The position numbers were made by a program, and so were the translations under genes. Of a DNA stretch of 34,634 nt, positions 23,630 to 28,372 are shown in pieces (position 1 is the first letter of the stretch; each line of letters opens with the position of its first letter). A model generated the notes under the pieces. It had not been told where the DNA came from. It saw only the letters and a list, made by a program, of their open reading frames with translations, and ran no database searches. This stretch comes from a virus. Lineage: Duplodnaviria > Heunggongvirae > Uroviricota > Caudoviricetes. The DNA lies in the IMG/VR virus record IMGVR_UViG_2541047873_000007; one strand, 5' to 3'.

Positions 23630-24616
23630 CTATTTAAGAATAAAACGGTATTTACTGTCAGGAGTGCTTTGCTGATCAAGTAGCAGTGAACGACATGGAG
23701 CAGTCAAAACCCGAGCATAACTACCATCAGGGCTTATGTTAATGTAACAAACCTTGCCCTTAACACTATAATTTTCGGGGACGGATGCCTTTGCTGATAC
23801 AGTAAATTTAAGGGTATGCCAGCCCGTTTTTTGCTTGTAGCTTGAAACCGAATGGAAATCATCTGAGTACTTATTTAACCCTGGAAACATGCTGCGCAGT
23901 GCGGGGATGGAATCTTCTATTATTTTATCGTTGGTTTTAATGTTAAAAACGCTGGTTTCAGTAGAAGCTACTGCTTTGGCATTTCCCCATTTACCAGCGA
24001 ACACAATCATTCCCACGAAAAATATTGCTACAAGAACTAACACTCCCCCCAACACTACTACATGAGGCTTCCGGCTTCTGGTTGGTACAGTTGCGACTGA
24101 TTTTGCACCGCTTTCCGATGGAGGTGATAGAGTTTTACTCTCATCACGAATATTCAGCAGATCATCAAAATAACCAAACACAGCCTGCAACTGCTCTTTG
24201 TCTAGGCCTTTAAGATGGGTTGTACCGAAATGCTTCAGACAGTATCTGTCACGGTCAAGACGATACCCAGGGTCAGTAAGCGCCATTATTTTGCTGACCA
24301 GAAGATTACAGTCCTTCATATTCTGGATCTGTTGTGCATATCTCTGAAGGATCTCAACCGCACCATGATAATCAGCCGCAGTCATTTCATTAACTGTTTT
24401 GGTATTAAGTTTCGTGTGGATCGTCATCCATAGCTCGCGCTTACTTTCCCCCAGATCAACCAATTCATCCATCAATCTGTGTAAATCGCGTTTTTGCAGC
24501 AACGAAATTGGTTGCTGGGCCGAAGGAAGTATGTCAGCAGAATAGTTATGAATGGTAACATCACCGCTGACAACGTTACCCACATCCCCGTTAACTGTTT
24601 GCTTCTCTTTACTCAT
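23630..24616 (-). CDS. Single-pass membrane protein with cytoplasmic N-domain and extracytoplasmic C-domain (accessory)
   Basis: 328 aa; transmembrane segment VVVLGGVLVLVAIFFVGMIVFAG; ATG 24616 overlaps the repressor stop (ATGA); AT-rich. Confidence 0.5.
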   Translation of the reverse strand: MSKEKQTVNGDVGNVVSGDVTIHNYSADILPSAQQPISLLQKRDLHRLMDELVDLGESKRELWMTIHTKLNTKTVNEMTAADYHGAVEILQRYAQQIQNMKDCNLLVSKIMALTDPGYRLDRDRYCLKHFGTTHLKGLDKEQLQAVFGYFDDLLNIRDESKTLSPPSESGAKSVATVPTRSRKPHVVVLGGVLVLVAIFFVGMIVFAGKWGNAKAVASTETSVFNIKTNDKIIEDSIPALRSMFPGLNKYSDDFHSVSSYKQKTGWHTLKFTVSAKASVPENYSVKGKVCYINISPDGSYARVLTAPCRSLLLDQQSTPDSKYRFILK

Positions 24617-25074
24617 CTTCTCTTGGTATTTTTGTTCATTATTCCACCTGTTCCTATGGTTACGTTACCTTTGATAACATTCCCCAGAACATCTCCATGA
24701 ATAACCTGTTCCGCCCGTTCTCTGGAGGAGCCAGTAGTCAAGGCCGACAAAACTGAACCTTTGACCTGTAATGGTGCCTGCCGGTAGTGCTGCAGTAACT
24801 CCATTTCATCACGTGATAAAGTTATACCTGATGACTCCCCGGTAAGAATGAACTGTACATTGGCCCCAATTCTTGCAAAGGCTGCAAGTAACTCACCTCC
24901 GGGAACAGCAACCCCTCGTTCATATTTCCCCCACATTTCTCTTGAAACGCCACAAAGGGCTGCTACTTCAGCCTGCTTGAGTGATAACCGCGAACGCTCA
25001 GCTTTGAACCGCGACGCGCAAAGAGAATCAAAATTCACATAAACCTCATTGACAATGAGAACAATAGTTCTCAT
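24613..25074 (-). CDS. XRE-family HTH repressor (phage c-like), non-LexA-type C-terminus
   Basis: HTH LSLKQAEVAALCGVSREMWGKYERG; divergent from the ner-like gene; no S24 peptidase motif visible. Confidence 0.7.
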   Translation of the reverse strand: MRTIVLIVNEVYVNFDSLCASRFKAERSRLSLKQAEVAALCGVSREMWGKYERGVAVPGGELLAAFARIGANVQFILTGESSGITLSRDEMELLQHYRQAPLQVKGSVLSALTTGSSRERAEQVIHGDVLGNVIKGNVTIGTGGIMNKNTKRR

Positions 25075-25077
25075 AAT
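25049..25077 (+). promoter_or_regulatory. Early promoter Pe candidate (TTGACA-17 bp-CATAAT) for the ner-to-mor operon
   Basis: Consensus -35 at 25049-25054 and near-consensus -10 at 25072-25077; RBS AAGGAG and ner ATG follow at 25113 and 25125. Confidence 0.55.
25055..25074. promoter_or_regulatory. Operator candidate: palindrome ATGAGAAC-AATA-GTTCTCAT
   Basis: Perfect 8-bp inverted arms spanning the Pe spacer and including the repressor start codon (revcomp of 25072-25074). Confidence 0.45.
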
Positions 25078-25124
25078 CTATCACATATAAAACAAACATC
25101 ATTGCATCAACAAAGGAGACAACA

Positions 25125-25313
25125 ATGACTTCCGAACAAGTTAAAAATCTCTTCCGTCAGCGTGGTATCACGTTTACCCGCTGGGCCGAAGAACACGGCT
25201 ACAGCCGCAATGAGGTCTATCGTGTTCTCAATGGACAGACCAAAGCTCGTTACGGCAAAGCCCATGAAATTGCCGTAAAACTGGGATTAAAACCCACGTC
25301 AAATGCGGCATAA
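25125..25313 (+). CDS. ner: Ner-like DNA-binding regulator
   Basis: 62 aa, ...FTRWAEEHGYSRNEVYRVLNGQTKARYGKAHEIAVKLGL..., Ner/Nlp-like; AAGGAG RBS; divergent from the repressor. Confidence 0.8.
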   Translation: MTSEQVKNLFRQRGITFTRWAEEHGYSRNEVYRVLNGQTKARYGKAHEIAVKLGLKPTSNAA

Positions 25314-25365
25314 ATTTTCCACATATGCAACAGGTTATCACATATTGCAAAAATGGAAATGTGAC

Positions 25366-25674
25366 ATGAGTAAAGTAAATATTTCCAGTTCTGGGACCCG
25401 CATCCTACGTGTACTCAAAGCTCTACGCGGTCATGCTCTGAACGGTGTTTCTAACGGTGAACTGGCATCAGCCCTGGGGGAGTCCCCGGCGAATATCAAT
25501 CGAGCACTTAATACCCTTATTGAAGAGGGACTGGCCATGAAATTAGAGAACGGACGTTTCGCACCGGGAATCCAGTTACTACAGATCGCCATGGCTCACA
25601 GTCACGAGATGGCGCGTGCACAGGATCGTATTAACGAAATCAACCAACGAGTTATTTCAGGTAGTCGTTTGTAA
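25366..25674 (+). CDS. Winged-helix DNA-binding protein
   Basis: TRILRVLKALRGHALNGVSNGELASALGESPANINRALNTLIEEGLA resembles a wHTH; start 25366 or 25303 uncertain. Confidence 0.45.
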   Translation: MSKVNISSSGTRILRVLKALRGHALNGVSNGELASALGESPANINRALNTLIEEGLAMKLENGRFAPGIQLLQIAMAHSHEMARAQDRINEINQRVISGSRL

Positions 25675-25684
25675 GGAGTAATCA

Positions 25685-26599
25685 ATGGGACGCACCAAAT
25701 CACCCGTTAACACTGAACTGAATGTTGAGGTTCCGCTGTCAGATAACATCAATGTCAATTTGAACGCTATGACACAGCATCGCATGGAAATTATGCAGCA
25801 GTTTGGTGATGGACTGCCTTATGAACGTGATCGCATTGTTCACGAAGCACGTTTTTATATGGCGCAGAGTGCTGAATCTATGCTGGAAGCGGGTAAGCGG
25901 CTGATCATCTTAAAAGAAAATGAGCCACACGGTGATTTTACAAACATTTTAGAAAATGAACTCGGACTTGCACCACAAGTTGCTCGCCGCATGATGCAAG
26001 CCAGTATGAAGTTTTTGGGAGAAGGTGATGAGCCAACAAAACGCTCAACGTTGAGCGTTTTGGGGAAAGCCAAACTGTACGACCTGATGGTTCTGGATAA
26101 TGAAGAACTTGATGAATTGGCCGACGGCGGCACAGTTGCCGGCCTGACGCTTGACGACGTTGATCGCATGTCAGTACGTGAATTGCGTCAGGCCCTGCGC
26201 GAAGCGCGCGAAACCAACGCAGCACAACAGCGCGTACTCGCTGACAAAAATGAAAAAATAGACTCACTCTCCACCAGACTGGAGAAGAAATCCCGTATTC
26301 AGCCGCCTGAGCCTGATGAAGAGGTTAAGAAGCTGCGGGCGGAAGTGACAGCATTAGCGGTTGAGGCGGAATCTGCTATCGCCGTTCGACTGTCCAGCGC
26401 TTTTGAGACGCTGTGCGCATATTGTGCTGAAAACATGATTGATACCCCCAGAGACTTCATGGCAGGCCTGGTCTGTCAACTGGAAAGCACAGCGCGTAGC
26501 CTGCGCTCCACATTTGACCTGCCGGATGAGCCAACAGGCAATGCCGCGCCTTCATGGCTGACTGAGCCGACGCCACAGATTAACGGGCTGGAGGCATAA
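25685..26599 (+). CDS. Hypothetical early protein with coiled-coil segments
   Basis: 304 aa, AAGGAG RBS, between the wHTH gene and the transposase; no confident motif. Confidence 0.45.
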   Translation: MGRTKSPVNTELNVEVPLSDNINVNLNAMTQHRMEIMQQFGDGLPYERDRIVHEARFYMAQSAESMLEAGKRLIILKENEPHGDFTNILENELGLAPQVARRMMQASMKFLGEGDEPTKRSTLSVLGKAKLYDLMVLDNEELDELADGGTVAGLTLDDVDRMSVRELRQALREARETNAAQQRVLADKNEKIDSLSTRLEKKSRIQPPEPDEEVKKLRAEVTALAVEAESAIAVRLSSAFETLCAYCAENMIDTPRDFMAGLVCQLESTARSLRSTFDLPDEPTGNAAPSWLTEPTPQINGLEA

Positions 26600-26602
26600 C
26601 CA

Positions 26603-28372
26603 ATGAATGCTGCCCTGACTGAACGACTGGTTTATGTCGCCCGCGCGGCACGTGACGCGGGGCATGGTAAACGCGGTGCAATATACGACGCTGCCTGTGC
26701 TGAACTTGGCATGTCCCGCGCCACTCTGCTGCGCAGGCTGAAGGAGGTCTCTGTGACTGATAAACGCAAAAAACGCGCTGATGCCGGACGCAGCGCCCTG
26801 ACCCGCGACGAAGCCGCGCTGATATCTGCCACACTGCGTGAGGCCACCCGCAAGAACGGTAAGCGCCTCTATTCCATCGCAGATGCAGTGGAAACCCTGC
26901 GGGCTAACGGCTTTATCACCGCAGGCAGAACAGATGAAACCACCGGTGAGTTTTTCCCGTTGTCTGAAGATGCCATCAGCCGTGCTCTGCGTAACTATGG
27001 CCTGCACCCGGAACAACTGGATGCTCCTGCACCGCATACCGAAGTGGCCAGTCTGCACCCCAATCATGTCTGGCAGATTGACGCCTCACTCTGCACGCTT
27101 TACTACCTGAGCAATGGACATAAAGGGCTGCAGGTGATGGACAGCGCGAAGTTCTACAAGAACAAGCCCGCTAACCTTGCCCGTATCGCCAGTGACCGCG
27201 TGTGGAGTTACGAGATTACCGACCATGCCAGCGGCTGGATTTACGTTGAGTATGTGACGGGCGCGGAATCAGGTGAGAACCTGTGTTCTGTGCTTATCAA
27301 CGCCATGCAGGAGCGTGGCGGCGCAGACGTGCTGCACGGCGTGCCAAAAATACTCTATCTCGACCCCGGCTCGGCAAACACCGCGGGTATGACGAAAAAC
27401 ATGTGCCGCTCACTGGGCATCGACCTGATAGCGCACAAGCCGCATAACGCCCGCGCCACCGGACAGGTGGAAAAGGCGCGAGACATTATCGAACGCAAGC
27501 TGGAGCCGGGTCTGAAGTTCCGGCCGGTTCACAGTCTGGAAGAACTCAACGCGCTGGCCGCGAAATGGCGCAGCCACTTTAACGCCACGGCTGTTCACAG
27601 CCGCCACGGTAAAACCCGCACGGATATCTGGCTGAAGATTACTGCTGAGCAGCTGAAAAAAGCGCCTTCCGTTGAGGTATGTCATGAACTGGCTGTGGCG
27701 GCACCAGAACTCCGCAAAGTCACGCCAAAACTTCGTGTCTCGTTCCGGGGCACTGAATTTGACGTATCAACGGTACCGGGCGTACTGGTTGGTGAAAAAC
27801 TGATGATTACCCGTAACCCATGGCGCAGCGATGTGGCACAGGTGGTTCTGACCGGTGAGGACGGCCACGAGACGTTCTTCCTGGTCGAAGAGGTCAGAAA
27901 GAACGAGTTTGGCTTTGCTGAAGGCGCGGCGGTATTTGGCGAAAGTTACAAAGCCCTGCCGGAAACCCCGGCACAGATGGCGGCAAAAGAAACCGAAGCG
28001 CTGGTTACCGGTACAGACAACGCCGCAGATGCAGCCGCCGCACGCAAGGCGAAGGCGCTGCCGTTCGGCGGGCGGCTTGACCCGTATAAACATATCGACG
28101 ACACCACACTTCCGGCCTATATGCCGAAGCGTGGTCAGGCCTCTGACGTACGCGGGCCGCGCACTGAACAACGTCCCATGACTCATGTGGAGGCCGCGAA
28201 AGCCCTGCGCGATAAGTTCAGCGCCGACGGCCTTACCTGGACGCCGGAACATTACCGCCAGTTAACGGCACAGTACCCGGACGGCGTACCGGAAGCCGCA
28301 CTGGATGAAGTCATGGCCACGCTGACCACACCGGCCAGCAGCAGTGTTATCAGCATTGTTAACGGCAACTGA
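26603..28372 (+). CDS. DDE transposase (integrase-core type, transposable-phage A-like)
   Basis: 589 aa; acidic residues in WQIDAS and LYLDPGSANTAG consistent with a DDE core; followed by an ATPase gene; GGAGG RBS. Confidence 0.8.
   Translation: MNAALTERLVYVARAARDAGHGKRGAIYDAACAELGMSRATLLRRLKEVSVTDKRKKRADAGRSALTRDEAALISATLREATRKNGKRLYSIADAVETLRANGFITAGRTDETTGEFFPLSEDAISRALRNYGLHPEQLDAPAPHTEVASLHPNHVWQIDASLCTLYYLSNGHKGLQVMDSAKFYKNKPANLARIASDRVWSYEITDHASGWIYVEYVTGAESGENLCSVLINAMQERGGADVLHGVPKILYLDPGSANTAGMTKNMCRSLGIDLIAHKPHNARATGQVEKARDIIERKLEPGLKFRPVHSLEELNALAAKWRSHFNATAVHSRHGKTRTDIWLKITAEQLKKAPSVEVCHELAVAAPELRKVTPKLRVSFRGTEFDVSTVPGVLVGEKLMITRNPWRSDVAQVVLTGEDGHETFFLVEEVRKNEFGFAEGAAVFGESYKALPETPAQMAAKETEALVTGTDNAADAAAARKAKALPFGGRLDPYKHIDDTTLPAYMPKRGQASDVRGPRTEQRPMTHVEAAKALRDKFSADGLTWTPEHYRQLTAQYPDGVPEAALDEVMATLTTPASSSVISIVNGN

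Follow-up and report, generated by a model that had tools for sequence, protein, structure and literature searches.

A 34,634-nt stretch of viral DNA, referred to below as the window, contains an early promoter whose spacer is filled by a palindrome, and the palindrome in turn contains an ATG from which a divergent repressor gene could be read. This locus raises the question of which regulator the palindrome serves, and of where the repressor gene begins. The prophage family concerned is common in E. coli, and its switch is so far uncharacterised. Literature searches on members that are BcepMu-like or from E. coli turned up no experiments mapping operators or transcription starts, and those on this phage group found no binding, footprint or reporter results. 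The answer developed here is drawn from comparison of the window with related loci.

The region is identified from its sequence as the left-end control region, or immunity switch, of a BcepMu/B3-like transposable, Mu-like E. coli prophage. In BLAST searches, a 100% identical copy of the 1.1 kb surrounding the promoter was present in chromosomal prophages of many E. coli genomes, among them CE10 and IAI39. Of 5426 complete E. coli genomes, 624 matched this 1.1-kb query and 127 carried exactly this immunity type. The closest phage record to the region is Escherichia phage PhiKM, which is classified as Bcepmuvirus. The genes follow the Mu-type c/ner order, with the repressor divergent from ner and ner heading the transposase operon (Table 1). 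The 328-aa ORF that follows the repressor gene is probably co-transcribed with it. No terminators were found in the region around the promoter.

Table 1. Features of the immunity region and neighbouring genes, in window coordinates.
Feature	Position	Strand	Basis or remark
328-aa ORF	23630-24616	-	Directly downstream of repressor gene, 4-nt overlap; phrog_10002; Flk-like N-terminus, sub-threshold
Repressor gene as revised, 141 aa, GTG 25038-25036	24613-25038	-	Cro/C1 (XRE) HTH at N-terminus; relatives' starts
XRE-family HTH repressor, longest ORF	24613-25074	-	ORF list
Candidate second operator O2, GAGAAT-CAAA-ATTCAC	25023-25038		34 bp from O1 centre, over the GTG start; low confidence
Repressor Shine-Dalgarno sequence GAGGT	25043-25047	-	Opposite strand, adjoining Pe -35; GTG follows after 4-5 nt
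-35 hexamer TTGACA of Pe	25049-25054	+	Consensus and matrix scans; TTG invariant in six same-type relatives
Operator O1 (predicted), ATGAGAAC (25055-25062) / AATA / GTTCTCAT (25067-25074)	25055-25074		Predicted from comparison
-10 hexamer CATAAT of Pe	25072-25077	+	Start of homology with heteroimmune E. coli prophages
In-frame ATG inside palindrome	25072-25074	-	Complement of CAT in CATAAT; RefSeq/PGAP start, WP_001259268.1, 153 aa
Proximal repressor-promoter candidate, extended -10 TGaTAGATT	25080-25075	-	Score 8.8
TATCACATAT box at predicted Pe start	25079-25088		Exact second copy at 25336-25345, before next gene
Predicted Pe transcription start	25083-25085	+	6-8 nt past -10; inferred from promoter geometry
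Leader block CAAACATCATTGCATCA (CATCA-TTG-CATCA), ner 5' UTR	25093-25109	+	Conserved across genera
ner-like Shine-Dalgarno sequence AGGAG	25114-25118	+	6 nt before ATG
ner-like gene, 62 aa	25125-25313	+	BcepMu gp16 family; first gene of early operon
Distal repressor-promoter candidate GTGATA-17-AAAATT	Just after ner	-	Score 7.7, weak
Small winged-helix regulator	25366-25674	+	Next gene after ner-like gene
DUF3102 protein	25685-26599	+	Early operon
Transposase with rve domain	26603-28372	+	Early operon

The early promoter, here called Pe, had been predicted as a near-consensus sigma70 promoter (TTGACA, 17-bp spacer, CATAAT) at 25049-25077, pointing toward the ner-like gene, and it was recovered exactly there. 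It matches the sigma70 consensus at 11 of 12 positions with a 17-bp spacer. A match of at least this quality occurs nowhere else on either strand of the whole 34.6-kb window, for which 0.26 sites per window were expected from first-order Markov random sequences matched to it. The position-weight-matrix score of Pe, 14.7, is the single highest in the window, where no other site reaches 12, and a consensus scan of 2 kb returned Pe as its only match. The promoter lies 47 nt from the ATG of ner, which has an AGGAG Shine-Dalgarno sequence. Transcription starting near 25084 would run into the ner-like gene and the early operon, comprising the winged-helix regulator, the DUF3102 protein and the transposase.

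The palindrome was likewise found as described: ATGAGAAC-AATA-GTTCTCAT is perfect and fills the Pe spacer together with the first three bases of the -10 hexamer. Its conserved core consists of GAGAAC (25057-25062) and GTTCTC (25067-25072), with half-site centres 10 bp apart, and relative to the predicted transcription start the whole element would cover about -29 to -10. Perfect palindromes with 8-bp arms are not rare in themselves, as the window holds six such loci against 4.5 expected. What is non-random is the placement of this one: it sits exactly inside the spacer of the only strong promoter, and this promoter occupies the sole regulatory gap between divergent genes.

The same placement, with a palindrome in the spacer of the early promoter, recurs in relatives. 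A search with the Ner-like protein, taking one genome per species, yielded 80 loci from Gamma- and Betaproteobacteria, and 85 loci were compared in all. A good Pe is present upstream of ner in 77 of them. Among these 77, an inverted repeat scoring at least 6 lies inside the promoter in 65% of loci, compared with 6.6% of control segments of the same length from the same loci, and one scoring at least 8 in 32%, compared with 0.6% of controls; the loci are related, so these counts do not represent independent events. Counted from the start of the -35 hexamer, the repeat centres form a cluster at 15-16 nt, in the middle of the spacer. The comparison shows a family-wide design among Ner-encoding transposable prophages, in which the 17-bp spacer of the early promoter accommodates an inverted repeat.

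The position of the repeat is shared, and its sequence follows the recognition-helix (HTH) type of the divergent repressor. Repressors with the HTH CGVSRE(I/M)WG(K/R)YERG are paired with the repeat GAGAA(C/T)-N4-GTTCTC, those with VGASRKSQIRWEKDES are paired with GTCCCAT..ATGGGAC, and those with VGASKR(T/S)QIGWEQGR are paired with GTGCCA..TGGCAC, of which B3 itself has an imperfect version. Further pairs exist beyond these three. The type found in the window is represented by six other loci, one from Serratia (L057) and five from Pseudomonas (L045, L027, L029, L056 and L058), two of the latter being identical across the region. The HTH regions of their repressors are 63-67% identical to that of the window. 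In these six loci, the half-sites, the -10 hexamer and the TTG of the -35 hexamer are invariant, except that one arm reads GAGAAT in L057, while variation is seen in the four bases at the centre and in the flanks. Invariant half-sites around a free centre are the pattern predicted for base-specific contacts made by an HTH dimer.

A complementary view is provided by heteroimmune E. coli prophages. On the ner side, these are 83-93% identical to the window, and in BLAST alignments the similarity is lost to the left of window position 25072/25073. Their -35 and -10 hexamers occupy the same positions, and the 17-bp spacer holds a different inverted repeat in each type: GCTCATAATTATGAGC in the type of ST131 genomes, GTCTAA-tttt-TTAGAC in another, and the imperfect GGTGAG...TGCACC in a third. 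This arrangement shows an exchange of immunity modules at a breakpoint within the -10 hexamer.

The divergent gene encodes a repressor with a Cro/C1-type HTH, as Pfam returned HTH_31 (30.5 bits, cutoff 27) and HTH_3 (23 bits, cutoff 23). Within Pfam, only XRE-type HTH families were matched, with no Mu-type repressor domain, and a scan at E <= 0.01 found no Peptidase_S24 self-cleavage domain. The palindrome, designated O1, is a dyad site that overlaps the lytic promoter and has a sequence peculiar to each immunity type, as befits the operator of an XRE-family repressor. Its earlier interpretation as an operator gains strength from its occurrence at the same place in most relatives, from the way in which its sequence follows the repressor type, and from the homology break at the -10 hexamer. 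On this comparative evidence, the divergent repressor most likely has its operator in O1, and there is good support for the view that Pe is a promoter in which a repressor operator is embedded. The XRE-family repressor most likely binds, as a dimer, a palindrome of 16-20 bp with the core GAGAAC-N4-GTTCTC, and when seated on O1 it would keep RNA polymerase off Pe through steric occlusion.

The region contains one clear operator. The candidate O2 has a similar counterpart in L027 (GAGAAT-AAAA-GTTCAC). It falls within codons 1-6 of the repressor gene and is destroyed by synonymous changes in L045 and L057. The case for O2 as a second operator is weak, and the resemblance may reflect coding constraint. 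The only other match to the operator in the window, at 27274-27291 with 2 mismatches, was rejected as a further copy: it is located inside the transposase gene, heteroimmune phages have it in identical form, and it is consequently regarded as a coding coincidence.

The other part of the question concerns the start of the repressor gene. The original prediction placed it at the minus-strand ATG 25074-25072 within the palindrome. This codon is indeed present and in frame with the repressor ORF, but it did not hold up as the start, since the relatives start at the equivalent of GTG 25038. Similarly, the reported lack of a Shine-Dalgarno sequence is correct for the 18 nt preceding ATG 25074 but not for GTG 25038, which has GAGGT. 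On this basis, it had been suggested that translation of the repressor may use an mRNA with no leader or a weak one, in the manner of lambda cI expressed from PRM. Such a start at 25074 is regarded as unlikely, even though it can draw on several observations. The ATG yields the longest ORF, it is the start adopted by RefSeq/PGAP, the 153-aa form is common in databases, and the missing Shine-Dalgarno sequence fits a leaderless start. In addition, a weak minus-strand promoter-like sequence, TTGATG-17-TATGTG, would start RNA near 25075. However, in this nearest candidate the -10 hexamer does not end in the invariant T, and the score is 5.2, where scores of at least 4 are reached 1041 times in the window, and the matrix scan revealed no credible minus-strand promoter for an mRNA starting at 25074.

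The comparison with same-type relatives also speaks against this start. In all six, the ATG of the palindrome is out of frame. The Serratia locus L057, in which promoter and operator are almost identical to those of the window, has a TGA stop directly before the conserved repressor start, and in L056 and L058 an earlier start codon is absent. The 153-aa form would have the N-terminus MRTIVLIVNEVY..., and its 12 extra codons are the operator and the -35 hexamer read on the other strand, unconserved as protein. Between the conserved start and the -35 hexamer, the window and L057 differ by a 1-nt indel, as is expected of non-coding DNA. Variation within the same immunity lineage is limited: the 125 sampled E. 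coli genomes covering the region are at least 98.9% identical across it. Among three variants read, 25039-25074 contained two changes, which are too few for testing coding constraint. One of them, A25066G, is in the central four bases of O1 and would be synonymous in the long ORF. The other, T25040C, is between the Shine-Dalgarno sequence and the GTG and would change Tyr to Cys in that ORF.

The conserved signals are found instead at 25047-25036, and they count against the leaderless proposal. The repressors of the six same-type relatives start with ATG, GTG or TTG located 8-11 nt left of the -35 hexamer, preceded by a CAAGGGG or CAAGGTG Shine-Dalgarno sequence at the same place as GAGGT in the window. 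These starts align residue for residue with GTG 25038 (V-N-F...). In many loci of the wider family, a possible start codon is found at a distance of 8-11 nt to the left of the -35 hexamer, with a Shine-Dalgarno sequence that adjoins or overlaps this hexamer on the opposite strand. The annotated repressor start of phage B3 is a GTG 11 nt left of TTGACA, the same spacing as for GTG 25038. The closest solved relative of the repressor is the N-terminal domain of P22 C2 (E = 9e-5), and the alignment begins at residue 5 of the 141-aa repressor and residue 4 of C2. In public databases, the gene call of 153 aa and that of 141 aa each occur on no fewer than 1000 contigs. The repressor gene most likely begins at GTG 25038 and not at the ATG of the palindrome, which is probably not used as the repressor start; the start inside the palindrome is probably an annotation artefact. 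A minor, N-terminally extended isoform of the repressor made from the operator ATG is a possibility.

With the gene starting at GTG 25038, its transcription can be considered. Because the repressor Shine-Dalgarno sequence adjoins the -35 hexamer of Pe, the repressor mRNA must begin to the right of it and cross both Pe and the operator. The promoter responsible would lie to the right of the operator; it could be weak and overlap Pe, or distal and antisense to ner, and the two kinds could also coexist. A position-weight-matrix scan of the minus strand gave no convincing repressor promoter, as 81 sites in the window score as high as the best candidate (8.8). In the family as a whole, sequences resembling minus-strand promoters are concentrated in two places, one over Pe and the other some 260-290 nt to the right of Pe and past ner, which are also the places of the proximal and distal candidates of the window; none of them is strong enough to be called as the repressor promoter. 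Strand-specific RNA-seq on B3-like phage Fc02 assigned the repressor transcripts of the lysogen to a distal promoter, pC1, which is antisense to ner (PMC9936078). In the same phage, a proximal repressor promoter, pC2, overlaps pE, and pE gives a burst of transcripts once the repressor is inactivated (PMC9936078). In the window, a repressor mRNA reading through Pe and O1 would lead to convergent interference with Pe, and probably to negative autoregulation. The switch model as a whole, which includes Pe, the repressor acting on the spacer palindrome, a gene start at GTG 25038 and a repressor mRNA arriving from the right, is considered quite probable.

An mRNA of this kind would contain the palindrome in its 5' leader, and the inverted repeat could accordingly function chiefly as an RNA hairpin that affects translation or stability of the repressor mRNA, and not as a DNA operator. 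In minus-strand RNA from 25090 to 25030, an 8-bp hairpin would form just upstream of the Shine-Dalgarno sequence, with an MFE of -14.7 kcal/mol and a z-score of -2.47, and the repressor leaders of the relatives would all carry a hairpin if transcribed from the right. Nevertheless, this interpretation is very improbable. Among loci of a single repressor type, E. coli and Pseudomonas included, the arms hardly change at all and show no compensatory drift, and the four central bases vary freely. Invariant arms with a free centre are the signature of base-specific protein contacts and speak against a hairpin of purely structural function, be it RNA or DNA. Furthermore, the arm sequence follows the recognition helix of the repressor, the spacing of the repeat to the -35 and -10 hexamers is fixed, which would be unnecessary for an RNA element, and an Rfam search returned no family match. 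The function as a DNA operator is preferred here; a dual role throughout the B3/BcepMu-like group, in which the operator would double as an RNA hairpin upstream of the repressor Shine-Dalgarno sequence and tune translation or stability, is a doubtful addition to it.

Although the palindrome adjoins the ner-like gene and Ner of Mu and D108 binds between divergent promoters, the palindrome is hardly credible as an autoregulatory site of the Ner-like protein, because heteroimmune E. coli prophages conserve this protein and its leader while their palindromes are entirely different, because the homology break at the -10 hexamer leaves the palindrome with the repressor, and because conserved candidate Ner boxes are found downstream of the -10 hexamer instead. 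These boxes accompany the ner-like gene. The TATCACATAT box at the predicted Pe start is conserved among heteroimmune enterobacterial relatives, second copy included, and is a candidate site for a conserved regulator, which could be the Ner-like protein or the product of the next gene. The leader block CAAACATCATTGCATCA is kept from E. coli to Pseudomonas as CATCTTTGCATCA. Both TATCACATAT and CAAACATCATTGCATCA travel with the ner-like gene, not with the repressor, and can be inferred as candidate Ner boxes. The 62-aa protein itself belongs to the BcepMu gp16 family (TIGR04111, 94.4 bits against a cutoff of 34). Against the Pfam family of Mu Ner, HTH_35 (PF13693), it scored 14.6 bits, below the cutoff of 25 (E = 0.034). 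It is termed Ner-like on account of its position and of B3-family annotation.

Among known systems, the regulatory region of B3 and Fc02 (Beetrevirus; repc / pC2-pE / ner) comes closest. Like the window, it combines a divergent XRE-type repressor with a gp16-family Ner-like gene, and B3 also has TTGACA, a 17-bp spacer with an imperfect inverted repeat, GGTGC..GCACC, and then a -10 hexamer. The operator sequence, the repressor specificity and the genes after ner are different, and the window differs further in its E. coli host and its Bcepmuvirus-like virion module. The Fc02 study defines no operator (PMC9936078). From the comparison of loci, a compact B3/BcepMu-like switch can be defined by a gp16-family Ner gene, a TTGACA-like -35 hexamer, a 17-bp spacer with an inverted repeat and a (C/A)ATAAT-like -10 hexamer. 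On the repressor side, it has a start 8-11 nt left of the -35 hexamer and a Shine-Dalgarno sequence adjoining or overlapping this hexamer on the opposite strand. The window contains every one of these elements.

The lambdoid immunity regions (lambda cI/OR, P22 c2, 434 cI) resemble the window in having a Cro/C1-type HTH repressor, divergent lytic genes and a palindromic operator that overlaps the lytic promoter and has half-sites one helical turn apart. In both cases, immunity modules are swapped between otherwise similar phages. However, the tripartite arrangement of lambda OR, with three adjacent related operators, was not found; the region has one good site, the clear operator in the promoter spacer. 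The window also differs in that no S24 domain was found in its repressor and in that the partner regulator is Ner-like, not Cro. Unlike the lambda PRM transcript, the repressor mRNA would have a Shine-Dalgarno sequence and is expected to be initiated upstream, and the region gave no sign of a leaderless transcript, that is, of an mRNA beginning at the A of the start codon.

With phage Mu (c - Pc/Pe - ner), the window shares the logic and the gene order, in which the repressor is divergent from ner and the transposase operon follows. By analogy, the Ner-like protein would presumably damp both promoters. The operators of Mu are composite and three in number, and they are accompanied by an IHF site. 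The window differs from Mu in the repressor, where no Mu-type domain was detected, and in the Ner-like protein, which falls below the Mu Ner family cutoff.

Phage biologists know from textbooks that lytic promoters can contain the operator of a repressor, and to them an ordinary immunity switch of this kind is unsurprising. The comparison nevertheless yields testable operator predictions for many immunity types together and locates the breakpoint of module exchange in the -10 hexamer. It also corrects a widespread annotation of the repressor start codon, by which the protein is shortened from 153 aa to 141 aa.

A separate observation was made within the early operon. The DUF3102 gene contains a perfect 26-bp palindrome at 26037-26062, which is kept in relatives by many compensatory substitutions, and the encoded amino acids change. 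This co-variation is stronger than anything seen at Pe and O1.

The DUF3102 gene of the early operon contains a perfect 26-bp palindrome, CAAAACGCTCAACGTTGAGCGTTTTG, within its coding region. In relatives, a perfect palindrome is maintained at the homologous position through many compensatory changes, for example as AAAAGCGACAACGTTGTCGCTTTT, CCAAATGTGCCAACGTTGGCACATTTGG, CAAAACGGCAAGCGCTTGCCGTTTTG and CAAATTCGTCGACGTCGACGAATTTG. Across these relatives, the outer CAAA(A/T)..(A/T)TTTG remains constant while the inner bases co-vary, and arms of at least 12 bp occur in at least 25 of the 85 compared loci. The amino acids encoded over the palindrome differ between relatives, including KRSTLSVLGK, KSDNVVAFR and KCANVGTFGK. 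Judged from these sequence comparisons, the target of selection seems to be the symmetry of the DNA or RNA, at a site that precedes the transposase gene by approximately 550 nt. A literature search for such an element found nothing.

Table. Positions of the features in the window; L numbers denote related loci with a Ner-like gene
Feature	Position	Strand	Context	Loci with the homologous site
328-aa ORF	23630-24616	minus	overlaps repressor stop codon by 4 nt	
TATCACATAT, first copy	25079-25088			
ner leader block	25093-25109		ner 5' UTR	
Operator-like sequences in ner	25190-25228		ner coding sequence	
Site grouped with the TATCACATAT copies	25317-25328			
TATCACATAT, second copy	25336-25345		downstream of ner	L003, L004, L005, L011, L012, L020, L031, L035
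26-bp palindrome	26037-26062		DUF3102 coding region, 25685-26599	L003-L006, L009, L010, L020, L021, L028, L031, L035-L037, L040, L041, L047, L050, L055, L064, L065, L084

A sharp boundary is found at the predicted early promoter of the ner-like gene, Pe. In heteroimmune E. coli prophages, which carry another repressor type and another spacer palindrome, homology to the window starts exactly at the -10 hexamer (25072-25073), and approximately 470 E. coli genomes, among those matching a short query from the regulatory region, align only from this point onward. Because homology starts at the -10 of Pe, immunity modules, each made up of repressor, operator and -35, appear to be swapped through recombination in the conserved -10 and leader.

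The ner leader itself contains the block CAAACATCATTGCATCA (CATCA-TTG-CATCA). The block is kept as CATCTTTGCATCA from E. coli to Pseudomonas and Betaproteobacteria, directly ahead of the Shine-Dalgarno sequence, and this conservation is unusually strong for non-coding DNA.

The sequence TATCACATAT is present as two exact copies. The first falls on the predicted start site of Pe, and the second lies approximately 20 nt ahead of the Shine-Dalgarno sequence of the next gene after ner, the winged-helix gene. This second box is kept in the form TTATCACATAT(T/C)G in relatives from E. coli, Intestinirhabdus, Brenneria, Xenorhabdus and Photorhabdus, some of which have an extra TTATCAC copy upstream of it. 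The Ner-like or the winged-helix regulator may bind the box, or the box may be a piece of a promoter antisense to ner.

The ner coding sequence also contains an inverted repeat, AGAACACG-N23-CGTGTTCT, and a half-site-like TGTTCTCAATG. These sequences resemble the operator arm, a likeness that is probably due to chance or related to coding.

Downstream of the repressor, and probably co-transcribed with it, lies the 328-aa ORF, whose entire length matches phrog_10002 (function unknown). Approximately the first 130 residues of the ORF resemble the flagellar regulator Flk, at a level under the family cutoff. The ORF may be an accessory or exclusion gene expressed in lysogeny.
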